From an uncultured Ectothiorhodospiraceae bacterium (GTDB lineage: Bacteria > Pseudomonadota > Gammaproteobacteria > S012-40): a DNA stretch of 64,000 nucleotides. Made by a program: the position numbers and the translations under genes. Position 1 is the first letter of the stretch. Every line of letters begins with the position of its first letter. Of this stretch, positions 5,327 through 39,537 are shown in pieces. The notes beneath the pieces are model-generated. The model saw only the letters and a list, made by a program, of their open reading frames with translations, was not told the DNA's origin and did no database searches. The stretch lies in contig CAZWUO010000001.1 of assembly GCA_964636675.1 (NCBI GenBank), positions 639 through 64,638 of the forward strand, written 5' to 3'.

Positions 5327-5884
5327 ATGATGAAAAACAAATGGATATGTGCTTTTTTGTTGGTGTTAACGGCATCGATAGGTATCGCTAATGCTGAAAA
5401 AGTGACCGTTGGAGAAATAATTGGTTTGGTAATGCTCAATAATGAAGGTGTATTTGTAAAAGTGAATACAGGGATGGAATTAGAAAAAGGTGATCAAATT
5501 TATGTGCTTGAAAATTCTTCGGCATTATTATTACAAGGTAGTGATTGTGCAGCGCGGTTAAATGCCAATGAACTCTTTGAGTTAAATCACTCTGATCTAT
5601 GCGCAAAAAACTCCAGTTTGATTACGTCCAAAGGGCCTCAATTAGTCGCAGCGATCGGCTTGGATGAACCTAACTCTGCAACTGGCTTGGATACAGGGGA
5701 AGCATCTGAAGACCAAGAAAATTCCGTTGGTGAAGATGGAGCAATATTACCGGAAAATCAGAGTTTTTTTTCAGGGATTGCAGCGAAACTAGCAATTCCT
5801 GCAACCTTAACCGGTGCTGTACTATTTTCAACCATTGCAGGTGGTGGTGGTACTGTGCGGCCTGAACCGATTAGTCCAGAATAA
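5327..5884 (+). CDS. Small secreted protein with a FecR-like beta domain and a hydrophobic, Gly-rich C-terminus
   Basis: Signal peptide MMKNKWICAFLLVLTASIGIANA with an AEK cleavage context. Central region aligns by eye with the N-domain of the 621-aa protein at 32081..33946 (G.V...G.V..N...V..G..L..GD.I...ENS.A.L). C-terminus AIPATLTGAVLFSTIAGGGGTVRPEPISPE. Confidence 0.5.
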   Translation: MMKNKWICAFLLVLTASIGIANAEKVTVGEIIGLVMLNNEGVFVKVNTGMELEKGDQIYVLENSSALLLQGSDCAARLNANELFELNHSDLCAKNSSLITSKGPQLVAAIGLDEPNSATGLDTGEASEDQENSVGEDGAILPENQSFFSGIAAKLAIPATLTGAVLFSTIAGGGGTVRPEPISPE

Positions 5885-7413: not shown

Positions 7414-7456
7414 CCTAGATTCCGCAGTTGACCACGATGCGGCATCGTTAAGCCGC
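7414..7456. repeat. Truncated copy (left terminal inverted repeat plus about 20 bp) of the MITE-like repeat family also present at 15420, 24510 and 35501
   Basis: cctagattccgcagttgacc...ggcatcgttaagccgc matches the 5' end of the 15420..15647 copy. It overlaps the spoVR stop codon. Confidence 0.6.
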
Positions 7457-8953
7457 AATCTCTTTTTTCTGTTCATGGGTTAATTCAACGGCGTTATCCT
7501 CGGTAACGGTCTCTAGGCGTACCGTAAACCCCCATAGTCGCGTGAGATGTTTTATTACCTGATCGACAGTTGCAGCAAGTGGTTTACGGTTGTATTGTTG
7601 GTGGCGTAAGGTCAATGCGCGATCGCCACGCATGTCTACATTATACACCTGAATATTAGGTTCTTGGCTTCCTAGATTATATTGATCCGCAAGTAATGTG
7701 CGAATTTGTTGATAGCCTTCATCATTATGAATTGCAGATATTTCGATATTGCGATTTTTGTCATTGTCTAGAACAGCGAACAGTTTTAAGTCGCGTATCA
7801 CTTTAGGTGACAAATATTGTGAAATAAAGCTTTCATCTTTAAAATTTCTCATGGCAAAGTCCAAAGTATCGATCCAGTCTGTGTTTACTAAATCAGGAAA
7901 CCATTTTGTATCTTCCTCGGTAGGGTGTTCGCAGATTCGCCTGATATCACTCATTATCGAAAATCCAAGCGAGTAGGGGTTTATTCCACTATAGTGGGGT
8001 GAGTCGAAATCGGGTTGGTAAGTTACATTACTATGTGACTTGAGGAATTCAATCATAAAACCATCAGTGACGAGATTTTCATCATAGAGTTGATTTAAAA
8101 TCGTATAGTGCCAAAATGTTGCCCAACCTTCATTCATCACTTTAGTTTGTTTTTGTGGATAAAAGTATTGGGATATTTTTCTGACTATGCGTACGATTTC
8201 TCTTTGCCAAGGTTCTAGTAGAGGGGCATTTTTTTCGATAAAGTAGAGTATGTTTTCCTGAGGTTCTTCTGGGAAACGATCAACTATTTTTTCTTTTTTC
8301 TCATTTTCTCGTCTAGGCAACGTGCTCCATAGCTCATTAACCTGAGACTGCATATAAACTTCTCGTTCTTTGAGCCTTGCTTGTTCTTCTTTCATGGACA
8401 CAGGGTGGGGCCGTTTATATCGATCAACTCCGTAGTTCATTAGCGCATGACAGGAATCCAATATTTCTTCGACTGCAACTTCGCCATATTTTTCTTCGCA
8501 GTCAGTCACAAAGTCCTTGGCAAATACGAGATAATCAATAATCGCATCTGCGGAAGTCCATTGTTTAAATAAATAGTTGTTTTTAAAAAATGAATTATGT
8601 CCATAAGCTGCATGTGCAAGCACAAGTGCTTGCGTCATCATCGAGTTTTCTTCCATTAAATAGGATATACATGGATTCGAGTTTATAACAATTTCGTAGG
8701 CTAAGCCCATTTCTCCGCGACGATACTTTTTCTCCGTGTCCATAAATTGCTTACCGAAAGACCAGTGGCTATAACCCACCGGCATTCCAACTGAGGAATA
8801 CGCATCCATCATCTGTTCTGCGGTTATAACTTCTATTTGGTTTGGATAGGTATCGAGCTTGAATTTCCGAGCAATCCTCGATATTTCTTGGTCATATCGC
8901 TCAATCAACTCGAAGGTCCACTCAGATGTTTCAGATATTGGCTTGTGTGTCAT
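7448..8953 (-). CDS. spoVR: SpoVR/YcgB-family protein
   Basis: 501 aa. Conserved gene order prkA-yeaH-spoVR on the same strand. Typical SpoVR-family length and motifs. Confidence 0.85.
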   Translation of the reverse strand: MTHKPISETSEWTFELIERYDQEISRIARKFKLDTYPNQIEVITAEQMMDAYSSVGMPVGYSHWSFGKQFMDTEKKYRRGEMGLAYEIVINSNPCISYLMEENSMMTQALVLAHAAYGHNSFFKNNYLFKQWTSADAIIDYLVFAKDFVTDCEEKYGEVAVEEILDSCHALMNYGVDRYKRPHPVSMKEEQARLKEREVYMQSQVNELWSTLPRRENEKKEKIVDRFPEEPQENILYFIEKNAPLLEPWQREIVRIVRKISQYFYPQKQTKVMNEGWATFWHYTILNQLYDENLVTDGFMIEFLKSHSNVTYQPDFDSPHYSGINPYSLGFSIMSDIRRICEHPTEEDTKWFPDLVNTDWIDTLDFAMRNFKDESFISQYLSPKVIRDLKLFAVLDNDKNRNIEISAIHNDEGYQQIRTLLADQYNLGSQEPNIQVYNVDMRGDRALTLRHQQYNRKPLAATVDQVIKHLTRLWGFTVRLETVTEDNAVELTHEQKKEIAA

Positions 8954-8961
8954 ATAACGTT

Positions 8962-10272
8962 CTACGTTTCATTGTTTTTGCTAAAGAGTTCCCGAAAAAC
9001 AGGATAAATGTCTGCGACATCGTGTAACTGCTGCATCGCAAAATTTGGATAAGTCGATACTATTTTTTCATACTCATACCACAGGCTTTGGTGGTTTTGC
9101 GGGGTTATTTCTACGTATGCAAAATATTGTACTAATGGCATAATGTCCTCTTCCAAGAGCTTTTTGCACAACGGGGAGTCATCATGCCAATTATCACCAT
9201 CTGATGCTTGGGCAGCATAAATATTCCATTCCTCTTCCGAGTATCGTTCTTGTGCGATTTTTTTCATTAAGTGTAATGCGCTCGATACAACTGTTCCACC
9301 TGTTTCGCGAGAATAAAAAAAGTCTTCTTCGGATACTTCTTTGGCGATAGTATGGTGTGATATGAAGACGAGTTCAATTTTTTCATAATTACGATTTAGA
9401 AATAGATAGAGAAGAATAAAGAATTTTTTAGCCATATCCTTCTTTTTTTGATCCATAGACCCCGATATATCCATGAGACAAAACATGACTGCCTGGGTTG
9501 TTGGTTTTTGGATGTCGACCCTATTGTTATACCGTAAATCAAAAGTGTCGATAAAGGGAATCGCATCTCGTTTCCTCTTTAGACCTTCAATTTTTTTTCT
9601 TAATTGAATGACCGGTAAATCGTCTTCGGAAGACGATTCTAATAGCAATTCTAGCTCTTTTTCTGTTTCGATTATTTTTTTTCTATAGGGATTGCGCAGT
9701 GCAATTCTGCGAGCTTGGGCACTACGCATTGAACGCAGAATATTAATGTTTGTAGGTACACCTGATGTAGTGAATCCCGCTCTGGATTTGCTTTTTTCAT
9801 ATATCGTGGAAAGTTTTGTTTTAACCAAGTTTGGAAGTTCAAGATCCTCAAAGAAAAACTCCATGAACTCTTCTTTACTGAGTTCAAAGACAAAGTCATC
9901 AGCACCCTCACCTTGATTCGACGGCTTATTTCCTTGTCCATTTCCTTTGCCACCTCTTGGTCTCGGTATTTTATCGCCGGGTACAAAATCATGATTTCCA
10001 GGATGGATAATATCTCGTTGGCCGCCTTGGCCATGATATATAGTCGGTTCAGAAATGTCTTTTGCAGGAATTGAGATTTTTTCACCACTGTCTACGTCAG
10101 TGATGCTTCGATTTGCAATGGCGTCAGTGACCGCCTTCTTAATTTGGTTTTTATAGCGCCGAATAAAACGTTGACGATTTACTGCACTTTTGTTTTTCCC
10201 ATTAAGACGACGATCAACAAGTCTGTACACAGTGTCAACCTTTATGAAGACTTGCGTACGCGTAAATACCAA
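8962..10272 (-). CDS. yeaH: YeaH/DUF444 family protein (vWA-like)
   Basis: 436 aa. Gly-rich basic segment RPRGGKGNGQGNKP typical of YeaH. Sits between prkA and spoVR. Its start overlaps the prkA 3' end. Confidence 0.85.
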   Translation of the reverse strand: MVFTRTQVFIKVDTVYRLVDRRLNGKNKSAVNRQRFIRRYKNQIKKAVTDAIANRSITDVDSGEKISIPAKDISEPTIYHGQGGQRDIIHPGNHDFVPGDKIPRPRGGKGNGQGNKPSNQGEGADDFVFELSKEEFMEFFFEDLELPNLVKTKLSTIYEKSKSRAGFTTSGVPTNINILRSMRSAQARRIALRNPYRKKIIETEKELELLLESSSEDDLPVIQLRKKIEGLKRKRDAIPFIDTFDLRYNNRVDIQKPTTQAVMFCLMDISGSMDQKKKDMAKKFFILLYLFLNRNYEKIELVFISHHTIAKEVSEEDFFYSRETGGTVVSSALHLMKKIAQERYSEEEWNIYAAQASDGDNWHDDSPLCKKLLEEDIMPLVQYFAYVEITPQNHQSLWYEYEKIVSTYPNFAMQQLHDVADIYPVFRELFSKNNET

Positions 10273-12164
10273 TCACAAAGTAAACGTACTTGTTTCGAGG
10301 TGTAGCCTTTGTCTGACATACGTTGCAAGAAGTCATCGTGCTTTTTCTTATCATCAGAGGAAGATTTTGTATTAAATGAGATAACGGGTAAAAGTTCTTC
10401 CGTATTAGAGAACATTTTTTTCTCTATGACATTTCTGAGTTTTTCATAGCTTGTCCAGCTAGGGTTTTTTCCTTTGTTTGCGGCTTTTGCTCGCAGAACA
10501 AAGTTTACGATCTCATTCCTAAAATCTTTAGGATTGCTGATTCCTGCTGGTTTTTCTATTTTTTCCAATTCTTCATTTAGTGCGGATCGACTAAATATTT
10601 CCCCGGTATCTGGGTCACGATAGTCTTCGTCTTGAATCCAATAGTCTGCATAGGTGACATAGCGGTCAAATATATTTTGACCATACTCTGAATAACTTTC
10701 TAGATACGCGGTTTGTATTTCTTTCCCAATAAATCCCACATATTCCCTAGCGAGATATCCTTTGATAAATGACAAATAACGCTCTTCAATTTCAGAAGAG
10801 AATTGTTCTTGTTCTATCTGCTGTTCCAATACATAGAGAAGATGAACCGGATTTGCTGCTATCTCCGAGTTATCATAATTAAACACTCGTGATAGTATTT
10901 TAAACGCGAAGCGAGTCGATAAACCTGTCATTCCTTCATCAACACCGGCAAAATCTGTATATTCTTGATAAGATTTTGCATGGGGGTCAGTATCTTTTAA
11001 ATTTTCTCCATCATAGACTCGCATCTTTGAATAAATATTCGAGTTTTCGGGCTCTTTCAGGCGAGATAATATGGCAAATTGAGCCATCATTTTGAGTGTA
11101 TCGGGCGCGCATGGGGCTTGAGAAAGCGAGCTTTCGCGCAAAAGTTTATTGTAAATTTTGATTTCGTCGGCTACCCGTAAACAGTAAGGGACTTTCACAA
11201 TATAAATTCGATCAAGAAATGCTTCATTATTTTTATTGTTTCTAAATGTTTGCCATTCGGATTCATTGGAGTGAGCAAGGACTATTCCATCGAATGGTAT
11301 AGCACCTAATCCTTCAGTGCCTTTATAGTTACTCTCTTGAGTTGCGGTTAACAGAGGATGTAACACTTTAATCGGTGCTTTAAACATCTCGACAAATTCT
11401 AATAGACCTTGGTTAGCTAAGCATAGTCCTCCTGAATAGCTATAAGCATCAGGATCATCCTGTGCATATTCTTCTAGTTTTCGGATATCTACTTTACCTA
11501 CTAAGCTAGAAATATCTTGGTTGTTTTCATCGCCAGGTTCGGTTTTGGCAATTCCCGATTGCAAAAGTATTGATGGCTTGAGCTTAACAATTTTAAATTT
11601 GGTAATATCGCCATTAAATTCTTGCAACCTTTTTACAGCCCAGGGTGACATCATTCCATTTAGATAGCGACGTGGTATGCCATAATCCTCTTCAAGAATT
11701 TCGGCATCCTCTTCTACGGAAAAAAGTCCCAGAGGAGATTCATTGACGGGGGATCCTTTGATGGCATAGAACGGTGTTACTTCCATCAGTGATTTCAGCT
11801 TTTCTGCTAACGAAGATTTTCCACCACCAACAGGGCCTAACAAATATAGAATTTGTTTTTTCTCTTCTAAGCCTTGTGCCGAGTGTTTGAAATAAGAAAC
11901 TATTTTTTCCACCGCGTCTTCCATGCCGTAAAAATCTTTGAATGCCGGATAAATTTTTATCATGCGATTGGAAAATAATCGGCTCAGCCGTGGATCTGTT
12001 CTTGTATCAATAATTTCTGGTTCGCCAATAGCAGCTAACATTCTTTCCGCTGCGGTAGCATATGCAGAGGAATCAGACTTGCAAAGCGTAAGATACTCCT
12101 GAATGGAATATTCTTCTTCTTTGGCTGCATCAAAACGTGTTTGATAATGATTGAATATGCTCAT
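10242..12164 (-). CDS. prkA: PrkA-family serine protein kinase (AAA-type)
   Basis: 640 aa. Walker A GPVGGGKSS. Strong end-to-end resemblance to E. coli YeaG/PrkA. Confidence 0.9.
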   Translation of the reverse strand: MSIFNHYQTRFDAAKEEEYSIQEYLTLCKSDSSAYATAAERMLAAIGEPEIIDTRTDPRLSRLFSNRMIKIYPAFKDFYGMEDAVEKIVSYFKHSAQGLEEKKQILYLLGPVGGGKSSLAEKLKSLMEVTPFYAIKGSPVNESPLGLFSVEEDAEILEEDYGIPRRYLNGMMSPWAVKRLQEFNGDITKFKIVKLKPSILLQSGIAKTEPGDENNQDISSLVGKVDIRKLEEYAQDDPDAYSYSGGLCLANQGLLEFVEMFKAPIKVLHPLLTATQESNYKGTEGLGAIPFDGIVLAHSNESEWQTFRNNKNNEAFLDRIYIVKVPYCLRVADEIKIYNKLLRESSLSQAPCAPDTLKMMAQFAILSRLKEPENSNIYSKMRVYDGENLKDTDPHAKSYQEYTDFAGVDEGMTGLSTRFAFKILSRVFNYDNSEIAANPVHLLYVLEQQIEQEQFSSEIEERYLSFIKGYLAREYVGFIGKEIQTAYLESYSEYGQNIFDRYVTYADYWIQDEDYRDPDTGEIFSRSALNEELEKIEKPAGISNPKDFRNEIVNFVLRAKAANKGKNPSWTSYEKLRNVIEKKMFSNTEELLPVISFNTKSSSDDKKKHDDFLQRMSDKGYTSKQVRLLCDWYLRVRKSS

Positions 12165-29116: not shown

Positions 29117-31639
29117 TTAACCATTTCTTCTATGTTTCTTTTTTTTCGCTTGTCCATGATTATTATATTTATGGGGCTTTTTATATTTTCTTTTATAAGA
29201 TTTCTTTTTTTTCCCATGATGCTTTCGAATCTTTACATGATGTTGTTCCATTTTGTGGTGCTTGTGGGCATATTTATGCGAGCGCTTTTTAGAATATTTT
29301 CGCAAGTGTTTTACTTCATAATAATATGTTTTTGATTTAATATTTCCAGATTCATCGCTTGCTGTCACTACAATGGTATATATTAAGTTTTCATTTGATC
29401 GAGGAATTCTGGTTTTTTTCAACCAGATATCCCATCCATCTTCGGTTTTTCTTATATCCCAAAATGGCTTATTGTACCGATGGCGTCTAGGATGTTTCTT
29501 AATATCCAGGTTAGTGGAAATGTTGATGTCTAGGTTTGGTGATTCATCAACGATGTCCTTTAAGCGATTAATGCTAAGCATGTGCTCGAGCTTACGATTT
29601 GGTGGCCAAAGTCTATTTTTAGTTTCAATGATCGTAAAAGTAGGAGCGGTAGTATCAATAATGATTATCTCTTGTACAGCAACACTTGTGTTTCCGTTGC
29701 TATCGGTTGCATGCCAAGTAACGAGTGTTTGACCAAGCGGCAACGCAGTTGGAGCATTATTAGTAATGGTTACTGGAAAGATATCTTCTGCTTGCGCCGA
29801 GCCAATATTAATTTTGGTTGCAAGACTAGTCGCCTCAGAAATAATATTTTCGGGTGTACTAAGAATAGGAGGTGTCGTATCAGCAACTTGAATGGTTGAT
29901 GTTAAGCTTGAGGCATTGCCACTTGCATCAATTGCACTCATATTTATATCGGTAAACCCGACCGGAAACCACGAGTCATTTATACTGATAGTGGTGTTAG
30001 GGATACTGCAATTGTCTGTTGCGTTGATCGTCACCAAGTAGTGGGCACCTTGTAACGAAGTGGCCTCTAACATGATGTACGATGGTGTGTGAATTTGGGG
30101 TGGTGTATAGTCGTTAATAGAAATTATTACATTATCTGAATCTAATGCATCCGAATTATCACGTACTTGTAAGTTAATGTTATGAATTCCGGTTGCCAAC
30201 GGAAGTACTGGATTCATTAAGTTATTGCTGCCAAAAGTGCCTGTCCAGGTATAGGCCAACGACTGCTCAGAGTCAGGATCGTTTGATTGGCTACCATCGA
30301 GTTGTATGTTTGTAGTAAGGCCGTTACACAATAAAACTTGATCAATTCCCGCATTTGCGACGGGCTGAATATTGGGTATGGTATCTCTCACACGAAGATT
30401 AATTTGGGTGTGATTATTCGAACCCAAATTTGACGCTGAAGACGAAAATGTCAACATCTCCCCGTTATCGTTTATTGCGCTAACGAAGTCAATATTAGCA
30501 TTCAGTTGCTGCCCTTGGTGAGTCAAACTGACTCGTTCGGTGGTACCTAAGATAGTATCGTAGACAAATAAATCGCTTGAATCGTTTGAGTCGTTGCTGA
30601 CCAAGTTGCTTGCTTTTGATACATATGACACAAAACGACCGTTATTACTCATTTTGGGTATTAGACTAACGTTGTTTGCTTGAATCCCCTCCGAGGATTT
30701 ACTGATGAGAATAATTGAATCGGTAGTTTTGTTGTACAAAAAAACATGTCTAAATGTTGCATTTGTACCAGCCACTAAATTCTTAGCGTCCGATATAAAT
30801 GCAATGTATTTTCCGTTGCCACTGATATAAGGGTTTCTATTGTTGGCGACAAGAGGGCTGCCATCAAAGGTTTTGCTGATTAACTCAGAAGTACCTGTTT
30901 CTCTGTCCCAAAGAAAGACATCATACTTATTGTTGTCATCAATCGGGTCAATGTTATTCGCAACAGAAATGTAACTGATGTATCTGCCATCATCACTGAT
31001 GCTTGGAGAATTGCTGTCCCCATTAGCGCTGGATCCATCAGGAGAGGATGAGATTAATTGTACCGAATTGTTAACTACATCAAATATGAATATATCGCGA
31101 AATTGATTGTTATCGTTAGGCGCTAGGTTTGTAGCTCTGGAGTGAAAAACGATATATTTTCCATTACCACTAATTTGAGATAACGAACTTATCCCATTCG
31201 GAATGCTTCCATCATGGGTTTTACTCACTAGTGTTGTAATGTTATTTGTTATATTTCTTAAAAATATATTACCCTTGCTTCCCGAGTTAGCGGTGAGATT
31301 GTTTGCAAAAGACTCGAACACTGCCAATGTCCCATTGCTATCTATATCTGCCCGAAGGCTATTTGCATTTCCTGGATCCCCTGAATTTGAAACACTTAAT
31401 CGAGTGAATTTATTTGTTGTTCGGTCAAGCAGATAGATGTTTCTATTTGTTACCCCATCATTTATAAGATTTCTGGCAGTAGATTCGAATACGATTCTAT
31501 TAGCCTTTGCGCTTATTGAGGGAGAATAGCTTGGACCATTTCCCAATTCGCTTCCATTCTTCGAAATTATAAATGTTTCAGCAGCATTTACCGCAAAACA
31601 AAACACGAATAGAAAACTATATTGGAACAGAGCTTTCAT
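29117..31639 (-). CDS. Secreted 840-aa protein: N-terminal PD40/TolB-like beta-propeller repeats, HYR/Ig-like modules and an extreme Lys/His-rich C-terminal tail
   Basis: GGAGG SD and signal peptide MKALFQYSFLFVFCFAVNAAE. Repeated NGKYI(V/A)F.S.A.NL units. HYR-like blocks (NCSIPNTTISINDSWFPVGFTDINMSAIDASGN, VTWHATDSNGNTS). Last 65 aa about 45% Lys and 20% His. Start overlaps the upstream gene's stop (ATGA). Confidence 0.7.
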   Translation of the reverse strand: MKALFQYSFLFVFCFAVNAAETFIISKNGSELGNGPSYSPSISAKANRIVFESTARNLINDGVTNRNIYLLDRTTNKFTRLSVSNSGDPGNANSLRADIDSNGTLAVFESFANNLTANSGSKGNIFLRNITNNITTLVSKTHDGSIPNGISSLSQISGNGKYIVFHSRATNLAPNDNNQFRDIFIFDVVNNSVQLISSSPDGSSANGDSNSPSISDDGRYISYISVANNIDPIDDNNKYDVFLWDRETGTSELISKTFDGSPLVANNRNPYISGNGKYIAFISDAKNLVAGTNATFRHVFLYNKTTDSIILISKSSEGIQANNVSLIPKMSNNGRFVSYVSKASNLVSNDSNDSSDLFVYDTILGTTERVSLTHQGQQLNANIDFVSAINDNGEMLTFSSSASNLGSNNHTQINLRVRDTIPNIQPVANAGIDQVLLCNGLTTNIQLDGSQSNDPDSEQSLAYTWTGTFGSNNLMNPVLPLATGIHNINLQVRDNSDALDSDNVIISINDYTPPQIHTPSYIMLEATSLQGAHYLVTINATDNCSIPNTTISINDSWFPVGFTDINMSAIDASGNASSLTSTIQVADTTPPILSTPENIISEATSLATKINIGSAQAEDIFPVTITNNAPTALPLGQTLVTWHATDSNGNTSVAVQEIIIIDTTAPTFTIIETKNRLWPPNRKLEHMLSINRLKDIVDESPNLDINISTNLDIKKHPRRHRYNKPFWDIRKTEDGWDIWLKKTRIPRSNENLIYTIVVTASDESGNIKSKTYYYEVKHLRKYSKKRSHKYAHKHHKMEQHHVKIRKHHGKKKKSYKRKYKKPHKYNNHGQAKKKKHRRNG

Positions 31640-32064
31640 AGTGAACCTCCATCTATCTCGCTGAATATAGGGAAATTCAGATTATCCTGAGTGCTGTTTT
31701 TTGCTTGTAAATCGAATACTAAAATGGGGTCTTGAGAAACGGAGCTTGCGGTTGTGTAAGTCGTAAAGCTCCAATAGGATTTGTACATACTCGAAATGGG
31801 TAAGTTTCCGATTTCGAGTATATGATTGGTTGGGTTACTCATTATATCGATACTACGAGGAATGAGAACGACGGAGTTAAAATTCTTCAAGGTGTTGTTA
31901 ATAATAGTGATCTCATAAACTGCGCTGGTGTAATCATCTTTCGAAAATACTGAAACCAAGCGATGTTTAACAGAGATAGCATTTTGCTCAGCCATCAAAT
32001 GACCTGGCCAAATTAATAAGACGCAAATCATAAATGCCAATATATACCTGTAATGATTCATCAC
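31636..32064 (-). CDS. Small secreted hypothetical protein (142 aa), translationally coupled to the downstream 840-aa gene
   Basis: Signal peptide (ILAFMICVLLIWPGHLMAEQ). The stop overlaps the start of the 29117..31639 gene. Confidence 0.55.
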   Translation of the reverse strand: MMNHYRYILAFMICVLLIWPGHLMAEQNAISVKHRLVSVFSKDDYTSAVYEITIINNTLKNFNSVVLIPRSIDIMSNPTNHILEIGNLPISSMYKSYWSFTTYTTASSVSQDPILVFDLQAKNSTQDNLNFPIFSEIDGGSL

Positions 32065-32080
32065 TATCCCAACCCCTCTT

Positions 32081-33946
32081 TTATTGCACTACTTCTAAAG
32101 CAATAGCGCCGTTAACCGTAATATCGTTGTTTACAAAATTTGAGTCTTCGACTGAATCGTTGACTGAATAAGTTAAGCCAACTCCAGCGGGATTATTGCT
32201 CGTTGGATCGGTTAGTGCGCTAAATGCACCATCAATCTGCCCGGTGGCTGAGCCAGATGCGCCTGTGTTTGCAAACATCGTAGTCATACTGCCGCTAAAG
32301 GTGGCGTTTGCATTGTTGATAGGAACGTTAATGGCTTGAGCGGTGATTTCATAATTTGTTGCATCAGGATCATTGATGTCTAACTTGATATCTGCAGATA
32401 TCGTTTGATTGGAAAAATTCGCGGTTAGGGAGGTTTGAGATCTGTTAAGTGTGCCGATATTTCCAAAGTTGTCGGTAGGTGAGGTATTGCCAATGACTGC
32501 ATAATGTGCAACACCGGTAGATGGCAAGGTAATTTGCTCTGCTGATTCATCCATTAACAACCAATGTAGTTTATTTTGGGTAAGATCGATGTTGGATGCT
32601 GTCGTGCCGTCTGATAGCTTCATGCTGCCAGATTCCCACCGCCCCCAAGAAATTCCGAGAGCTGCATTTGAACCACTATCTGCATTTTTTGCAGTTCCTA
32701 TGCTCACCGTTTGTTCTTCGGTAATTAAAGCACTGTTCAATATTTTAATCTTGAACGAAGTGAGTCGTTGGTTTGTGTCGATTTGAAAATCACTCGTTTT
32801 ACGGGAATATACTGCACTCGATATGTTCAAACCATTGTTGGAAAAAATGTTGTTAGATACTGCAATATTATTCTGAGAAATTACCGGTGGCATAATAATA
32901 TTGGGAGTGGATTCGTCCGTTGAAGAATCATTTGGAGGGGGAATACTAATACTGGCTTCAGTAGAGGCATCTTCTTTTGAATGTGTATTTGAGACGATTA
33001 ACAGAACATTTTTTTTGTCCTCAATGGCAGTTTCATTTGATTGCGCGAGTATTTCGGATGATTCAGTATTTCTGACTAACACCTCTTCTTCAAGTTTGTC
33101 ATCAACAAAAATATCATCTGATTTGACCGTTGAAATGATATCTTCTGATACCGAGCTATTTGTTACACGATTATTTTCGGGGTTGACGAATGAGTCTTGT
33201 TTGCCTGCGATTGATGTTGTTACTTTGGAGTTGTTAACGATGTCTTTTGTTATAGATTTTTCTGCAATATTGGAATCAGATTGATTTGATTTTATCGCAG
33301 CAAATAATAACTCTCCAGGTGCTGAATCTAAAAGCAGGGGTTCAGATGAGAAGTCTGGAACATAACCATATTCACTGGCATCAATTTCTACGCTGCCTCC
33401 TTCATTAGCTACTACAACTCCGCCAGCCATAACGCCAATATATAACCCATTATCGTTATTGCAGTCTTCGTCACACAATCGTGCGCTATAGTCTGTTCCT
33501 CTAATGCCTATTGTTGCGATTGGAGTTGCAACTTTATACGATTTTTTATTTGCTTCACCTATAGACCCGGTAACACTTCTAAAGCTTCCCTTTAACAAGT
33601 TGAAGAATGTTCTGTCATTTTCAATATTTTCATTAAAAGTGAATATGTCAATTCTAAATCGACTATTTGGCCTGATGGCAATAAGTCCACCATCGGCCAT
33701 TCTTAGTTGGGCTTGACCGTTTTCTGATGTTATAATTGTGTCTCCCTCATTAATATCATCACCTCGATAAAGTCGTTTTATCTGTTTCGAGTCAGAATTT
33801 TTTATATGTACACCACCCAGAGAAAATAAAACTTTTCCCGCAGCAGAATAGGCTGTTATAGGAATGAATAAAATAAATAACATAAAAATAGTTTGTAATT
33901 TAGTTGTGTTGTTTTGGAAAAAATAAACTGGGTTTTCGGTAGTCAT
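32081..33946 (-). CDS. Secreted 621-aa protein: signal-peptidase-I type leader, FecR-like N-domain, long Ser/Asn/Thr/Asp-rich linker, C-terminal beta-rich domain (candidate Slam-type cargo)
   Basis: AGGAGG SD. Leader MLFILFIPITAYSAAGK with no lipobox Cys. FecR-like block GKVLFSLGGVHIKNSD...GDDINEGDTIITSENGQAQLRMADGGLIAIRPNSRF. C-terminal 200 aa of alternating hydrophobic/polar strands (GVAHYAVIGN, LTANFSNQTISADIKLDI, ATFSGSMTTMFA, AGVGLTYSV) ending VVQ. Confidence 0.7.
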   Translation of the reverse strand: MTTENPVYFFQNNTTKLQTIFMLFILFIPITAYSAAGKVLFSLGGVHIKNSDSKQIKRLYRGDDINEGDTIITSENGQAQLRMADGGLIAIRPNSRFRIDIFTFNENIENDRTFFNLLKGSFRSVTGSIGEANKKSYKVATPIATIGIRGTDYSARLCDEDCNNDNGLYIGVMAGGVVVANEGGSVEIDASEYGYVPDFSSEPLLLDSAPGELLFAAIKSNQSDSNIAEKSITKDIVNNSKVTTSIAGKQDSFVNPENNRVTNSSVSEDIISTVKSDDIFVDDKLEEEVLVRNTESSEILAQSNETAIEDKKNVLLIVSNTHSKEDASTEASISIPPPNDSSTDESTPNIIMPPVISQNNIAVSNNIFSNNGLNISSAVYSRKTSDFQIDTNQRLTSFKIKILNSALITEEQTVSIGTAKNADSGSNAALGISWGRWESGSMKLSDGTTASNIDLTQNKLHWLLMDESAEQITLPSTGVAHYAVIGNTSPTDNFGNIGTLNRSQTSLTANFSNQTISADIKLDINDPDATNYEITAQAINVPINNANATFSGSMTTMFANTGASGSATGQIDGAFSALTDPTSNNPAGVGLTYSVNDSVEDSNFVNNDITVNGAIALEVVQ

Positions 33947-33958
33947 TCGGTCTACCTC

Positions 33959-35293
33959 CTATTGTATTTTCCATTGAACAGACAAATTTATTGAAAATCT
34001 GTCGTAATCAAATAGAGAAACGGTTGAAATATTTTTTATGTACTTTATTTGTGGAATAATACTTAAATTTTTTCTAATTATTATATTTATGCCACTGGAA
34101 AAATTTGCTTTTTTTTCTTTGCGAATTGTCCCAATAAATGGTTTGTTATAATTTGAAGTAGATAATTTTATCTGTGTGAAAAATTGTTTTTTCCCGCCTA
34201 AAAAATGGTTTGTTATGATTTTTGTATGTAAAGAATTTTTTTCATACGGCGATGATTTCAATTTTGGCGCGTCATATTCAATATATCCAGCCAATAAAGC
34301 GGTAGATGGAATAAATAATTTGTATGAAAATTTGGTGTTAATTTCGATTGATCCTTGGTAGCGATCACGTAATGAAAAATTCGATGCATGTGTGTAGTAA
34401 GATATTGTGGAGCTAGTACCGAATCTAATGGTTGGCGAAGCAAAGTAATTCCATTGTGCAGTCGATCTTATGATTCCGGTATTAAATTCGGTTCCCAGAT
34501 AAAATGCGGTGACTGATATATTTGTGTTAGTTGAAAATTTGAGTCTCTTATACGACATTCCGATTGAGGACATTGCACCCGACGAGTTTACAAATGACGC
34601 TCGATTGTATCGATTATCAAATATCGCTGCACTAAGATAAATGTCAGTTCGTTTGTTAGATGAATATGTTGCTGTATTATTCATTGTTAAGCCCATAAAC
34701 TCCGAAGGCGTTGCTTTACTTTCTTGGGTTAATATTAATCCAAGAAAGGATTCATTTTCTGTGGCTGAATTCACATTGTCGTCAAATCCGCCTTTTAGTG
34801 TGACGTAGGTCTCGAAATTAATTGGTTTTTCATACAGTTTGGCATTGATTTTTTTCAACGAAACTGTGATAAATTGTTGCAATTCTCGCGGTGGTTGCAA
34901 GCTTTGAGATATTTCAAATTGTCTTTTTGCTTGATGCAGTTCATGTGCTCGATAATACGCCCGACCTAACTCAAAATGAGCTCCACCGAAGTTCGGGTGT
35001 ATGGCTACGGATCTTTCTAAAGCGAATATAGCGATGCTGGTTTTTCCGGTTTCTAATGCGGATAAACCCAATAAATAGTCAAACTGAGGGTTGCCCGCGT
35101 TAGTTTCCGCTAAGGGGTTTAGCAGCGAGAATGCTCTTATAGATTGGTTATTTGCAATAAGAACTTCGGCTTTTTCCAATAGTTCTTTTAACACATTTTT
35201 ATTCGCGGCTTCATTAATAGATTCGCTTGCTGTTACCTTGGGCAAAAAAATGGATAAAGCGAGAAGGAGAAAAAGCCATTTTGTATTTTTCAT
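33959..35293 (-). CDS. Outer-membrane protein: signal peptide, periplasmic TPR repeats, C-terminal beta-barrel (Slam / DUF560-like surface-protein translocator candidate)
   Basis: Signal peptide MKNTKWLFLLLALSIFLPKVTASE. TPR-like helices (FDYLLGLSALETGKTSIAIFALERSVAIHPNFGGAHFELGRAYYRAHELHQAKRQFEISQSL). About 290-aa C-terminal region of amphipathic beta-strands with aromatic girdle residues. First gene of a 4-gene operon, 12-nt gap to the next gene. Confidence 0.7.
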   Translation of the reverse strand: MKNTKWLFLLLALSIFLPKVTASESINEAANKNVLKELLEKAEVLIANNQSIRAFSLLNPLAETNAGNPQFDYLLGLSALETGKTSIAIFALERSVAIHPNFGGAHFELGRAYYRAHELHQAKRQFEISQSLQPPRELQQFITVSLKKINAKLYEKPINFETYVTLKGGFDDNVNSATENESFLGLILTQESKATPSEFMGLTMNNTATYSSNKRTDIYLSAAIFDNRYNRASFVNSSGAMSSIGMSYKRLKFSTNTNISVTAFYLGTEFNTGIIRSTAQWNYFASPTIRFGTSSTISYYTHASNFSLRDRYQGSIEINTKFSYKLFIPSTALLAGYIEYDAPKLKSSPYEKNSLHTKIITNHFLGGKKQFFTQIKLSTSNYNKPFIGTIRKEKKANFSSGINIIIRKNLSIIPQIKYIKNISTVSLFDYDRFSINLSVQWKIQ

Positions 35294-35732: not shown

Positions 35733-36029
35733 ATGTCGGTAACGAGTAAGATAGATGGTGACAATGTGATGATTACAATCAGTGGGAGGTTTAATTTTAA
35801 TGATCATGTACAATTTAGAAATGCTTATAAAGATGTGCCTCCGAATGCTACTTACACAATGGATATGAGCAATACGGAATATATGGATAGTTCTGCTTTA
35901 GGAATGTTACTTCTGCTACGTGAGCATGCAGGAGGAGACTCATCTGATATTATTATTGCAGGTAGTCCCCCAGACATAAAGAAAATACTCAATATCGCAA
36001 ATTTTCAAAAACTGTTTGAAATACGTTAG
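35733..36029 (+). CDS. STAS-domain anti-sigma-factor antagonist (HsbA/SpoIIAA-like)
   Basis: 98 aa. STAS pattern with phosphorylatable Ser in DSSALGMLLLL. Confidence 0.75.
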   Translation: MSVTSKIDGDNVMITISGRFNFNDHVQFRNAYKDVPPNATYTMDMSNTEYMDSSALGMLLLLREHAGGDSSDIIIAGSPPDIKKILNIANFQKLFEIR

Positions 36030-36043
36030 TTTTTTTTAATAAC

Positions 36044-37750
36044 ATGAAAGTATTAGTGGTCGATGATGATGCAACGAATAGGCTCGTCTTAAAGGGCTTA
36101 CTCGAAAAAGAAGATCATGATGTTATGCTGGCAGTAAACGGTGTTGAGGCTATTCAACAGTATGAAAATGGCAGTCCAGACCTGATTTTAATGGATGTTA
36201 TGATGCCAGAAATGGATGGCTACGAGGCGACCAGAGAAATCAAAAAGAGGTGTGGTAGCCGATTTGTTCCGATAATATTTTTAACCGCAGTTAGTGGTAA
36301 TGAAGCGTTAGTAACCTGTCTCGAATATGGTGGTGACGATTATATCGGGAAACCTTTCAACCGAACCGTATTAAGCGCAAAAATTGAAGCAATGAACCGC
36401 ATTGTTTCTCTTTATTATCAAATCCAAAACCAAAAAGAAGAGCTTGAAACCCATAAGCGTCATGTTCAGCGCGAAACTGAAGTAGCAGAGAAAATATTTA
36501 ATGGTATTCTTGAGCGCAGTGATTTAAATGTAGACTTTATCAATACCTTAAGACGTTCAGCCGAAGCATTTAATGGTGATATCGTGCTTGCCACGCGTAA
36601 TCCAAACGGGGGGATGAATATATTAGTGGGTGATTTTACAGGTCATGGTTTAGCCGCTGCTATTGGAGCAATGCCTGTCGCTGATGTGTTTTATGGAATG
36701 TCCAAAAAAGGCTTTGAGCTTGAAGACATTGTATCGGAAATAAATAAAAAATTACGTGTTGTCTTACCCATGGGGAGATTTTTGGCGGCGTGTATTATTC
36801 ATGTGGATACACGTTGCGAATACCTAAAAATATGGAACGGAGGAATGCCAGACGTTCTTATTTACCGACCGAGTGCGAAACAAGTAGTAGAATACTTGCC
36901 TTCTGAGCACGTTCCGTTGGGAATCTCTTCTCCTGTTCAGTTTGAAACGCAAGCCACCCGGGTGAAAATCAGCCCTGGCGACTATTTATATATTTATTCT
37001 GACGGTGTCGTTGAAACCACAAACGAACACGATGAGTTATTTGGAATGGATAGATTGGTTGAAGTTATTACTACGTTTGATGGCAACGAGGTTATCAGTG
37101 AATTAGAGGCATCTTTAAGTCGGTTCTCTAATACGCTTCCGCAAGCTGATGATATTACTTTAATGGAGTTTCATTGTAATCCAACTCATTTATTGCAACT
37201 CGATAATGAGATATCAGTTGGTAAAACATATGCAACCAGTTGGAGTATGTCGTTTATTTTTGAAACAGATACCTTACAGCGATTAGATCCAGTCACTTTT
37301 TTAATGAAAACCTTGAGCGAAATACAAGGCCTGCGAAGTCACAGTCAAAGTTTGTTTATGATCATTTCAGAGTTGTTTAGCAATGCGCTTGAGCATGGTG
37401 TGCTTGGCTTAGATTCGAAGTTAAAGACGACGCCTGAGGGATTTGCGCAATATTATTTTTTACGAGAAACTTTATTAAAAAAGATGAAATATGCTTATAT
37501 AAAGTTCAGTTTTTCACAGAAAATCATCGGTAGAGGAGGTGAAATAACCATCGGGGTTGAGGACTCAGGAGATGGGTTTGACTATGCTTCGTTAGGTGGG
37601 GAGAAACAATCAATGCCGCCTGAAAGTGTTAAATCGGGACGCGGACAGGTGCTTATTGCTGATTTGTGTGAGACTATTACCTATAAAGGAAAAGGAAATG
37701 TGGTTGAAGCCGTTTATTCTTGGAATGATACCCCCCTTATCGCGCATTAA
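36044..37750 (+). CDS. Three-domain partner-switching regulator: REC receiver + PP2C (SpoIIE/RsbU-like) phosphatase + RsbW-like GHKL serine kinase (HsbR-like)
   Basis: REC (MKVLVVDDD...DLILMDVMMPEMDG). PP2C block (GDFTGHGLAAAIGAMPV...YIYSDGVVE). GHKL N-box ELFSNALEHG, G1 DSGDGFD, G2 GRGQVLIA. Confidence 0.8.
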   Translation: MKVLVVDDDATNRLVLKGLLEKEDHDVMLAVNGVEAIQQYENGSPDLILMDVMMPEMDGYEATREIKKRCGSRFVPIIFLTAVSGNEALVTCLEYGGDDYIGKPFNRTVLSAKIEAMNRIVSLYYQIQNQKEELETHKRHVQRETEVAEKIFNGILERSDLNVDFINTLRRSAEAFNGDIVLATRNPNGGMNILVGDFTGHGLAAAIGAMPVADVFYGMSKKGFELEDIVSEINKKLRVVLPMGRFLAACIIHVDTRCEYLKIWNGGMPDVLIYRPSAKQVVEYLPSEHVPLGISSPVQFETQATRVKISPGDYLYIYSDGVVETTNEHDELFGMDRLVEVITTFDGNEVISELEASLSRFSNTLPQADDITLMEFHCNPTHLLQLDNEISVGKTYATSWSMSFIFETDTLQRLDPVTFLMKTLSEIQGLRSHSQSLFMIISELFSNALEHGVLGLDSKLKTTPEGFAQYYFLRETLLKKMKYAYIKFSFSQKIIGRGGEITIGVEDSGDGFDYASLGGEKQSMPPESVKSGRGQVLIADLCETITYKGKGNVVEAVYSWNDTPLIAH

Positions 37751-37904
37751 AAGAAAATCAACAGGCGCTAACAAATAGATAATAATGATAATTCTGTGTA
37801 AGCTAGCATCATGACTCCTGGATTCATTTATCACCAATGTATTTTACTGGAGAATATCAACATATCATGCTGAATTAGTTACATAATAATAAGGGGGGTG
37901 ATCT

Positions 37905-38588
37905 TTGATCGTTGTTATAGCAGATGATCATGCCATTGTCAGGGAAGGTGTTATTTATTCTTTAAAGACTCATTTTGGCGAAGAGACACAGGTTTTAGAA
38001 GCAGAAGACTCTCCGAGTTTAGTCGCATTACTTGAGCAAAATAAAAATATCGATCTCATCTTACTGGATCTCATGATGCCAGGTGCAAACGGGCTTTCCG
38101 TGTTAAGAAAAATATGTAATGAATGGCCTGGAAACTCCGTAGTGGTGTTGTCCGCATCAGAAGACTCTACGCTGATGCGTAAATCAATTGATATAGGCGC
38201 CGCAGGCTTTATTCCAAAATCATCACCTCGAGAGGTCATGATGAGTGCTATTAGGTTAGTGCTTGCTGGAGGAGTATATATACCGCCTAAAAGTTTATTG
38301 TCCATAGAAGCAGTCTCAACTTCCTCCGAAGCAACGGAAAATAATAAGTTACCTGATCCAAAAATACTCGCTCCCAAGCTAACCGATAGACAACGACAGG
38401 TATTGATTGGTATCGCTGAAGGCAAAACGAATAGAGAGATCGGAGCAGGGCTAGAACTGTCAGAATATACCATCAAGATTCATGTAACGGCTATATTCAA
38501 AAAACTGCAGGTGAACAATCGCATGCAATCTGTGTTAGTTGCTAAAGAGTTAGGCTTATTCAAGGTGGGTGACCTCACGCCAGACTAA
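37905..38588 (+). CDS. NarL/FixJ-family response regulator (REC + LuxR-type HTH)
   Basis: TTG start after aaggggggtga. REC (DLILLDLMMPGANG). C-terminal LuxR HTH (LTDRQRQVLIGIAEGKTNREIGAGLELSEYTIKIHVTAIFKKL). Confidence 0.8.
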   Translation: MIVVIADDHAIVREGVIYSLKTHFGEETQVLEAEDSPSLVALLEQNKNIDLILLDLMMPGANGLSVLRKICNEWPGNSVVVLSASEDSTLMRKSIDIGAAGFIPKSSPREVMMSAIRLVLAGGVYIPPKSLLSIEAVSTSSEATENNKLPDPKILAPKLTDRQRQVLIGIAEGKTNREIGAGLELSEYTIKIHVTAIFKKLQVNNRMQSVLVAKELGLFKVGDLTPD

Positions 38589-38784
38589 GTGTTTTATTCA
38601 TTTATCGCGTAATGCCCTGAATATTTTTATATCTAAAGATCGCCTAACGGTACCAATCTTAGATTGCCCATTATCTCACCTTCCATTCGGCCCAGAATTA
38701 CTTAGTATTACCAGGGAGCAAAATCCTTCTGACACCGAATAAATGCGCACTCTGCATGCTGTTCAACTGTGGGTTCTAGGATAA

Positions 38785-39537
38785 TTGACGATTATGCAAA
38801 AAAGAAGTAGTGAATCTTCAAAGTACATCGCTTTGGTTGCTGAAGATCATAAATATAATATGATATTGATGGCGAGCTTGTTAGAGAAAAAGAGTGTTAC
38901 TGTTATTCAGGCACGCAATGGTAAGGCCGCCGTTGAGCAATATTTGGCAAATAAAGTGGATATTATATTTATGGATATACACATGCCAGTCATGGACGGC
39001 ATTGAAGCGATTAAAAAGATTCGGACCTTAGAAAAGGGGCAAAATCACGTGCCTATTGTAGTGCTTACGGCCGATGTTTTTATTCGGGAAAATACAGGCT
39101 TAGACACTACTCTAATTGATGAAATTTTACTAAAGCCTATCGTTAGCCAAGATTTATGGAGAGCTTTCGAAAAATTAGCCATCAAAAATTCTCTATCTGA
39201 AAAATCTTGTGAGGCTAAATCGATGCCACAAGCGAAAAGTCCTCAAACAGTCATTTCCAAACATTCTCATAAATTACCCGATGTGCTTAAAGAAAAATTT
39301 ATTAAAGAAGTACACTTATTATATGGGTTAGTTGAGGAGCAATATCGTCTAGGTAATTCAGATAAATTGCAAGAATTACTGCATAAGTTAGCGGGTATGA
39401 GCGGATGTTTTGACGCGACAGAAATGACCGGCATTTGCAATGAGTTGTTGTCCGCGATTAAGAACGAAGATTTAGTGGCAATTGATTTGGCTTTTCAAAA
39501 GTTAACCCAGTATAACGCTGAGTTACCTACCCATTAA
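38785..39537 (+). CDS. REC receiver fused to a C-terminal Hpt phosphotransfer domain (HptB-like function)
   Basis: REC (DIIFMDIHMPVMDG) and a C-terminal Hpt-like helix with LHKLAGMSGCFDA (the HxxKG motif). Confidence 0.75.
   Translation: MTIMQKRSSESSKYIALVAEDHKYNMILMASLLEKKSVTVIQARNGKAAVEQYLANKVDIIFMDIHMPVMDGIEAIKKIRTLEKGQNHVPIVVLTADVFIRENTGLDTTLIDEILLKPIVSQDLWRAFEKLAIKNSLSEKSCEAKSMPQAKSPQTVISKHSHKLPDVLKEKFIKEVHLLYGLVEEQYRLGNSDKLQELLHKLAGMSGCFDATEMTGICNELLSAIKNEDLVAIDLAFQKLTQYNAELPTH

Follow-up and report, generated by a model that had tools for sequence, protein, structure and literature searches.

Verified cargo of the type XI secretion system (T11SS), whose outer-membrane proteins (OMPs) are Slam-type proteins of the DUF560 family, is confined to the animal-associated DUF560 cluster 1, and the cargo of the environmental clusters is largely unknown (PMC12282271, PMC8406197). 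The targeting domain of such cargo has an obligatory C-terminal position (PMC12282271), and hemophilin/HphA provides the precedent for cargo that carries no lipid (bioRxiv 10.1101/2023.03.29.534853; PMC8406197). FecR domains have been described together with CHASE2 sensors: LysM-FecR proteins are paired with CHASE2 kinases in Burkholderia (PMC5192318), and a gene cluster in Campylobacterota combines a CHASE2 cyclase, an outer-membrane protein that bears a FecR domain, and a protein with TPRs (PMC9239204). CyaK/CyaD signalling in Sinorhizobium depends on NsrA, an outer-membrane receptor that is required to perceive the external protein signal uL2 (PMC7529298, PMC13001267); its barrel spans aa 600-1200 and is the only part described as surface-exposed (PMC7529298). 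Here we describe a gene that brings features of both groups together. It lies at 32081..33946 on the minus strand of a 64,000-nucleotide stretch of DNA from an uncultured Ectothiorhodospiraceae bacterium (GenBank assembly GCA_964636675.1, contig CAZWUO010000001.1; the whole stretch is called the window below), and it encodes a protein of 621 aa, hereafter the target. We consider it probable that the target is the cargo, or a partner, of the Slam-type OMP encoded by the adjacent gene, with its C-terminal lobe serving as the targeting and surface domain.

The reading frame of the target is genuine; its best homologue was found at E=2e-293, and the feature is far beyond chance. By direct reading of the sequence, a strong AGGAGG Shine-Dalgarno element (33955..33960, -) precedes the ATG at 33946 with a spacer of 8 nt and overlaps the TAG stop codon (33959..33961) of the upstream OMP gene. 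The gap between the two genes is 12 nt, which points to a single operon and to probable coupling of their translation. The first 36 residues (33839..33946, -) were judged by eye to be a signal peptide of the signal-peptidase-I type, with a hydrophobic core and an S-A-A/G site at ...ITAYSAA/GK (the slash marks the cleavage position). The leader reads MTTENPVYFFQNNTTKLQTIFMLFILFIPITAYSAA, followed by GK, and contains no cysteine; the first cysteine of the protein is residue 158. Among the N-termini of 120 homologues the signal-peptidase-I type junction A-x-A/(A)GKVLFV is conserved, and a regular-expression search found no lipobox-like motif in 112 of them. The matches in the remaining 8 lie deep in the h-region, upstream of the conserved junction, and are hence not genuine. 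Since cysteine is absent from the leader and the junction is conserved, the target and its family are, as far as can be told from sequence, signal-peptidase-I substrates. By the same token the target is not a lipoprotein on its sequence, and it falls outside the subclass of Slam-dependent surface lipoproteins, which is marked by a lipobox cysteine at position +1. The first-pass annotation, made on this DNA from the letters alone, had read the leader end AYSAAGK as a signal-peptidase-I site without cysteine, and both the target and the 120 homologues agree with it. A lipobox on a corrected start, which would have spoken against that reading, was looked for and not found, and the start in use is backed by the AGGAGG element.

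The C-terminal lobe (aa 403-621, 32084..32740, -) was aligned with its relatives (alignment A1, 28 modules), which share the motifs SWGRW, LHW, LPxTGxAxY, GNTSPTDNxGNxG and GxFxGxF, together with VxGxAxF near the C-terminus. Its fold was shown by modelling because sequence searches against the PDB, including one with the whole protein, gave nothing relevant. The AlphaFold2 model built from alignment A1 (mean pLDDT 89.2, pTM 0.86) contains about 15 strands and no helix; about six strands, which may make up a handle, are followed by an eight-stranded barrel of the TbpB/hemophilin/fHbp/NHBA type. Compared with the structures of Slam cargo, the model scored 13.8 against the C-domain of NHBA, 12.6 against fHbp, 12.2 against Haemophilus hemophilin, 11.7 against Acinetobacter HphA, 11.6 against both TbpB and Vibrio HphA, 11.2 against HpuA, 10.9 against LbpB and 9.5 against PmSLP. 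It had been proposed at first pass that the last 200 or so residues form a beta-rich domain like the barrels of TbpB and fHbp; the all-beta model of about 220 aa bears this out, and the structure prediction that had been suggested as a check returned neither a helical nor a disordered C-terminus.

An eight-stranded barrel at the C-terminus could also be an integral outer-membrane barrel of the OmpA/OmpW/NspA type that anchors a periplasmic FecR domain, in which case the target would itself be an OMP and not cargo. Sequence identity of the lobe to membrane barrels is 3-8%, as against 12-22% to Slam cargo. The family matches of the 28 lobes are weak and fall to Slam cargo families only (NCBIfam slam_lipo in 4 of 28, best E 9.7e-5; Pfam TbpB_B_D in 3 of 28, best E 0.015, sub-threshold), a Shinella relative likewise matches FHBP_C weakly, and no OmpA/OmpW-type family was matched by the lobes. 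Further points against a membrane barrel are the putative handle subdomain ahead of the barrel, as in TbpB and hemophilin, a hydrophobic fraction of 26%, a chain that ends on a non-aromatic residue, and the occurrence of lobes in tandem, from one to eight in a protein. We regard a membrane-embedded lobe as highly improbable.

The lobe is a discrete module: a phmmer comparison of residues 359-621 with the homologues confined it to the last ~200 residues, and FecR proteins of ~550 aa carry one copy, those of 800-940 aa two and those of 1060 aa three. When the lobe profile was run against 1.84 billion representative proteins, 1620 clusters (50% identity) were recovered at E<=1e-3, 397 of them at the stricter limit of E<=1e-30. 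Of the 252 members that we inspected, 250 have the end of their last lobe no more than 30 aa from the C-terminus, and 211 begin with a FecR head, most of the others being N-terminally truncated fragments. T11SS targeting domains have to stand at the C-terminus, and we presume that the lobe acts as both the targeting and the surface domain. The number of lobes per protein ranges from 1 to 8, in chains of up to 3351 aa. Some members are giants (L024, L028, L031, P0149 and P0153; 1584-3351 aa) that hold 4-8 tandem lobes, with a Slam-like OMP gene upstream where the context is known; they resemble surface fibres more than they do soluble binding proteins.

The upstream gene (33959..35293, -), the presumed translocon, encodes an OMP of 444 aa in which a signal peptide is followed by an N-terminal TPR domain and then, at the C-terminal end, by a 14-stranded beta-barrel. 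Its structure model consists of the TPR part and 14 strands, and the closest structures are the 14-stranded CymA and OmpG; a profile of the OMP matched TPR proteins only in the PDB. Five relatives of this OMP scored above the gathering score of Pfam SlipAM (PF04575, DUF560; 22 bits), namely P0123 (33.3 bits), P0127 (33.8), L004 (34.5), L009 (25.9) and P0125 (25.2). The P0127 match covers positions 6-288 of the 288 in the SlipAM model, the protein is named 'surface lipoprotein assembly modifier' at NCBI, and P0123 and P0127 align over at least 91% of the length of the window OMP. By transitive homology through such relatives, the window OMP would be a divergent Slam/T11SS (DUF560) relative, its own score being sub-threshold, and its place is probably in an environmental DUF560 cluster that is uncharacterised.

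We examined the gene pair in 32 loci, which were collected by look-ups of six homologues and by a scan of species-representative genomes (6-sequence alignment); the scan pattern, [LVK][IV]GNTSPTD, biases this sample towards close relatives. The loci come from Woeseiaceae, Gallionellaceae, Panacagrimonas, Oceanococcus, Burkholderiales and metagenome-assembled genomes (MAGs) of unclassified Gamma- and Betaproteobacteria, and the family hosts are environmental (sediment or groundwater MAGs). Two of the 32 loci end at a contig edge. In all 30 with upstream DNA (28 distinct sequences), our own hidden Markov models (HMMs) found the OMP gene directly upstream of the target homologue, on the same strand and often overlapping it. 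The same order, OMP then target, was seen on the P0005 contig and in the window.

The target has a Sec signal peptide, a C-terminal eight-stranded barrel and an adjoining OMP gene, three of the features expected of Slam cargo. The reading as cargo is well supported by the leader, the FecR head described below, the fold of the lobe, the TPR plus 14-stranded architecture of the OMP and the conserved pair in 30 of 30 loci. Several results weigh against it. A Foldseek search of the PDB with the lobe model returned nothing at E<=1e-3; PsbO came out on top, ahead of LbpB (4.7e-3) and TbpB (0.11). In addition, the lobe profile matched no solved structure among the PDB sequences. The Pfam matches of the window OMP are to TPR families only; TPR_Slam, at 14.6 bits, is below its cut-off, the SlipAM threshold is not reached either, and on the barrel half PF04575 is absent even at E<=10. 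Published surveys of T11SS cargo list no FecR-headed class; their one context for FecR is a supplementary table of domains from neighbouring genes, where it counts as regulatory. The core of the initial proposal, a non-lipidated cargo of a Slam-type OMP with a barrel like those of TbpB and fHbp, nevertheless came through every test that was run, including those of synteny (30/30) and of C-terminal position (250/252).

Everything beyond fold, homology and synteny we infer. On the cargo reading, the target would be exported by Sec and cleaved by signal peptidase I before Gly37. The neighbouring OMP would then recognise the lobe and bring it to the surface of the cell, just as happens with TbpB, fHbp and hemophilin. 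Having no lipid to anchor it, the protein would be either released or kept at the surface non-covalently, and the FecR head would be its functional end, the one that binds a partner. The module would, in many relatives, be wired to a CHASE2 adenylate/guanylate cyclase. In the window it would instead be co-inherited with a small secreted protein, a PD40/PKD/HYR protein, a STAS/PP2C-kinase partner switch and a LuxR-type regulator. As to its role, surface sensing or adhesion is likelier than nutrient capture.

The N-terminal FecR-type beta domain, or head, occupies aa 37-205 (33332..33838, -). Pfam FecR (PF04773) matches residues 69-177 (33416..33742) with 45.3 bits at a cut-off of 24, so that the FecR-like N-terminus described at first pass was correctly recognised. 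NCBIfam LipL45 matches the target with 33.8 bits, and NCBIfam retention_LapA aligns to aa 44-100 with 21.6 bits, under its cut-off of 50. A profile of the family heads (A5, 17 N-domains) matched PDB entry 5ix9 at E 1.1e-5 over profile positions 5-75. This entry is the N-terminal retention module of MpIBP and has served as template for the LapA retention module, a periplasmic plug by which an adhesin at the cell surface is held within its outer-membrane pore (bioRxiv 10.1101/198937). By sequence, the first ~70 residues of the mature head appear to resemble the LapA/MpIBP retention module, a resemblance that speaks for relatedness of the module only; that the head acts as a plug is conjecture.

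Two features of the head are conserved across the family. The tripeptide R-G-T is invariant (ATIGIRGTDY), and in the target its Gly-Thr corresponds to G150-T151 (33494..33499, -). In an hhalign alignment that was not significant (E 0.21), this Gly-Thr stands opposite ALG/TEFTV of E. coli FecR, at Gly181/Thr182, which is the self-cleavage (autoproteolytic) site of that protein (PMC12036975). The target might self-cleave within its head at G150-T151, an equivalence taken from this non-significant alignment. The second feature is a pair of cysteines, C158 and C162 (33461..33475, -), the only ones in the target, within a conserved LCxxDC (family consensus YxAxLCxxDC). They are probably joined by a disulfide bond, which would help the head to fold early, while in the periplasm.

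The Pfam match and the weakly aligned Gly-Thr dipeptide are shared with the anti-sigma factors FecR, FoxR and PupR. The target differs from them in that it has no cytoplasmic anti-sigma domain, no transmembrane helix and no C-terminal STN-binding domain, and neither an ECF gene (sigma-70 r2/r4) nor a TonB-dependent transducer was found among its neighbours. A function as an anti-sigma FecR was rejected: the FecR domain follows directly on the signal peptide, and transmembrane helix, sigma factor and transducer are all absent.

Head and lobe are joined by a linker (aa 206-402, 32741..33331, -) that is acidic, rich in Ser/Asn/Asp/Glu/Thr and poorly conserved. The first-pass annotation had noted a Ser/Asn/Thr/Asp-rich middle of 150 residues. 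The composition holds (acidic, 42% S/T/N/D); the length is 197 aa instead of 150, and the lobe has an equal S/T/N/D fraction. Linkers in the family have a median length of 134 aa (5-95%: 84-542) and are of low complexity, rich in A/T/S/G/P. The linker may be disordered.

Retention-like head, linker and lobe together suggest a variant of the cargo model in which the protein spans the outer membrane as a tether or relay. The lobe would lie outside, the head would fold in the periplasm and be unable to pass, and the linker would be threaded through or beside the barrel, so that the protein is anchored without lipid. In CHASE2-linked relatives such an arrangement would couple binding at the surface to a cyclase of the inner membrane, by way of the CHASE2 domain that the cyclase has in the periplasm. 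The match of the family head profile to MpIBP and the plug role of the LapA module fit this arrangement, as do the low-complexity linkers and the conserved cysteine pair, which would favour early oxidative folding of the head. It also agrees with the CHASE2 pairings of FecR proteins cited above for Burkholderia and Campylobacterota.

The gene context of the relatives adds to this. In 14 related loci there is a neighbouring gene for a CHASE2 adenylate/guanylate cyclase, which in most cases lies immediately upstream of the OMP gene. On a Shinella plasmid the order is a TPR-OMP, a FecR protein with a weak FHBP_C match and a CHASE2 cyclase. A protein of 1235 aa, with FecR at 85-179, TPRs at 397-606 and a C-terminal region of ~600 aa, is encoded on an S. 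meliloti pSymB-type plasmid (NZ_CP146209.1; locus L033, 3114-6821), where its gene lies directly upstream of one for a CHASE2 cyclase. It is probably NsrA, by size, position and domain layout and not by accession, which limits the parallel, and it would be a natural fusion of a FecR head with a TPR-barrel outer-membrane protein. Other points tell against the tether: the characterised Slam cargo is all fully exported and a threaded one is not known, the retention-module score of the target is under the curated cut-off, no CHASE2-cyclase homologue is present anywhere in the 64-kb window, the window subclade likewise lacks CHASE2, and the neighbouring regulators are cytoplasmic. We take the spanning arrangement to be a possibility short of probable. 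More tentative still is its fullest form, a lipid-free trans-outer-membrane signalling device with the lobes outside, the linker at the DUF560 barrel and a periplasmic head that acts as plug and tether and, in many species, controls a CHASE2 cyclase, maybe with self-cleavage at the Gly-Thr. If it were true, T11SS would take part in a route of cell-surface signalling that runs parallel to FecA-FecR and is a split form of the Sinorhizobium NsrA-CyaK pair.

The absence of a lipid anchor had been taken at first pass to mean that the target is released like hemophilin. Non-lipidation stands (no cysteine, no lipobox), whereas release of the hemophilin kind had been deduced from the missing cysteine only. 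In such a case the OMP would export the target in full, with its head, and the target would then work outside the cell as a soluble binding protein. The head, however, is a FecR domain and not a haem-binding clamp, and no TonB-dependent receptor for uptake of a ligand was found in the operon or among the neighbours of the target, nor are haem or iron genes nearby. In function, then, the proposed kinship with hemophilin does not hold, and a role as haemophore was rejected for want of both haem clamp and receptor. The relatives tied to periplasm-facing CHASE2 sensors, the retention-module resemblance, the NsrA parallel and the long linkers also count against free release, as do members of up to 8 lobes and 3351 aa, which look like surface structures and not like diffusible scavengers. 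We consider free release rather unlikely. Given the resemblance to a retention module and the periplasmic FecR heads that go with CHASE2 sensors (PMC7529298), a protein tethered to the cell is no less likely than a released one.

It may also be asked whether the target is exported at all. In the systems that are characterised, FecR domains work on the periplasmic side (PMC12036975; PMC7529298). Slam-type proteins have their TPR domain in the periplasm, and tight coupling of two genes fits any stable complex. The target could then be a periplasmic accessory whose lobe docks on the TPR domain of the OMP, with the OMP barrel acting as the surface sensor, as proposed for NsrA. The fold of the lobe and its obligatory C-terminal position are those of a translocated T11SS targeting domain, and tandem arrays with as many as 8 lobes are difficult to reconcile with a docking role in the periplasm. 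A protein that stays in the periplasm in this way is improbable in our view, and the cargo reading remains the one that we favour.

Two further genes follow the target on the same strand; the operon structure was inferred from gene spacing only, since a scan for promoters and terminators found sites no more numerous than in shuffled sequence. The third gene (31636..32064, -) starts 16 nt past the target stop and encodes a secreted protein of 142 aa without any Pfam or NCBIfam match. Homologues occupy the same position in L001 (E 1.3e-7) and L002/L007 (E 1.6e-39). The fourth gene (29117..31639, -) overlaps the third by 4 nt and encodes a secreted repeat protein of 840 aa with PD40, PKD and HYR repeats (Pfam PD40 35 bits, HYR 31 bits), which is kept downstream in L001 (E 8e-175) and L002/L007 (E 9e-299). 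The C-terminal tail of this protein consists of ~60 residues that are nearly all Lys, His or Arg (...KKRSHKYAHKHHKMEQHHVKIRKHHGKKKKSYKRKYKKPHKYNNHGQAKKKKHRRNG). Because the target linker is acidic and this tail is basic, an electrostatic partnership between the two proteins is conceivable. The window belongs to a subclade with L001 (33% identity) and L002/L003/L007 (54%), in which a secreted protein of 133-142 aa and then a PD40/PKD/HYR protein of 830-1033 aa follow downstream.

Three regulatory genes, all assigned by Pfam, diverge from the operon. The first (35733..36029, +) encodes a STAS anti-sigma antagonist, and the other two encode response regulators, one (36044..37750, +) with PP2C (SpoIIE) and HATPase_c_2 domains and one (37905..38588, +) with a GerE/LuxR domain. 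The STAS, PP2C/HATPase_c_2 and GerE genes are arranged in the same divergent way in L001 and L002/L003/L007, and this conserved synteny is what suggests a functional link of the regulators to the operon. Together with a response regulator that carries an Hpt domain, they make up an HsbR/HsbA-like partner-switch cluster (35733..39537, +).

Elsewhere in the window, the gene at 5327..5884 (+) had been put forward as a second, smaller secreted FecR-like protein. It was rejected as such: Pfam FecR gave no match at E<=0.1, the HMM of the family N-domain none, and pairwise BLASTP only E=0.23. It encodes a secreted protein of 185 aa in a polysaccharide locus, without a Pfam match, and its likeness to FecR is limited to a 'G..L.KGD.I' stretch. 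Three consecutive genes at 7448..12164 (-), of 501, 436 and 640 aa, look like the SpoVR/YeaH/PrkA stress-kinase trio, to go by the appearance of their sequences.

The main interest of the locus is that a large and undescribed cargo family, with a FecR domain and not a nutrient-binding domain as its head, is assigned to environmental T11SS-like proteins and tied to CHASE2 and FecR signalling. If the assignment is true, the T11SS cargo repertoire gains a class of the signalling type, the recurrent cluster of CHASE2 cyclase, FecR and TPR proteins (PMC9239204) receives a structural explanation, and CHASE2 sensors, whose ligands are unknown, would have a route by which to receive information from the cell surface. 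Even if the target is merely released, it would be a new type of non-lipidated Slam cargo.

Compared with known systems, the target is closest to the Slam cargo proteins TbpB, LbpB, fHbp, NHBA, HpuA, PmSLP and hemophilin/HphA, with which it shares a Sec leader, a C-terminal barrel and an adjoining gene for a DUF560-type OMP. It differs from them in its head, which is FecR- and retention-module-like and outside the roughly ten architectures of PMC12282271, and in its long low-complexity linker, its environmental hosts and its linkage to signalling genes; receptor and haem or iron genes are missing from its surroundings, and the similarity to TbpB_B_D is sub-threshold. The window OMP is like Slam1/Slam2, NilB, HrpB and HsmA in its signal peptide, N-terminal TPR domain, 14-stranded barrel and position next to a presumed cargo, but it is too divergent to score on SlipAM or TPR_Slam. 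With the giant adhesins LapA and MpIBP the target has in common the retention-like first ~70 mature residues, the low-complexity linker that follows and the surface-type domains. It differs in having no RTX repeats and no signal for type I secretion, its export being Sec-dependent and its retention_LapA score well under the cut-off; no LapBCE, LapG, LapD or type I secretion genes were found in the target locus, and the target does not qualify as a LapA-like adhesin. The NsrA system of S. meliloti, with CyaK and CyaD1/CyaD2, resembles the family in that FecR, TPR and barrel parts work with a CHASE2 cyclase, a gene that adjoins the 14 target relatives mentioned above. The pSymB protein fuses all three parts, has a much larger barrel region and lacks the TbpB-like lobe, whereas in the target family the parts are split over two genes, the barrel is Slam-like and, in the window, a CHASE2 gene is absent.

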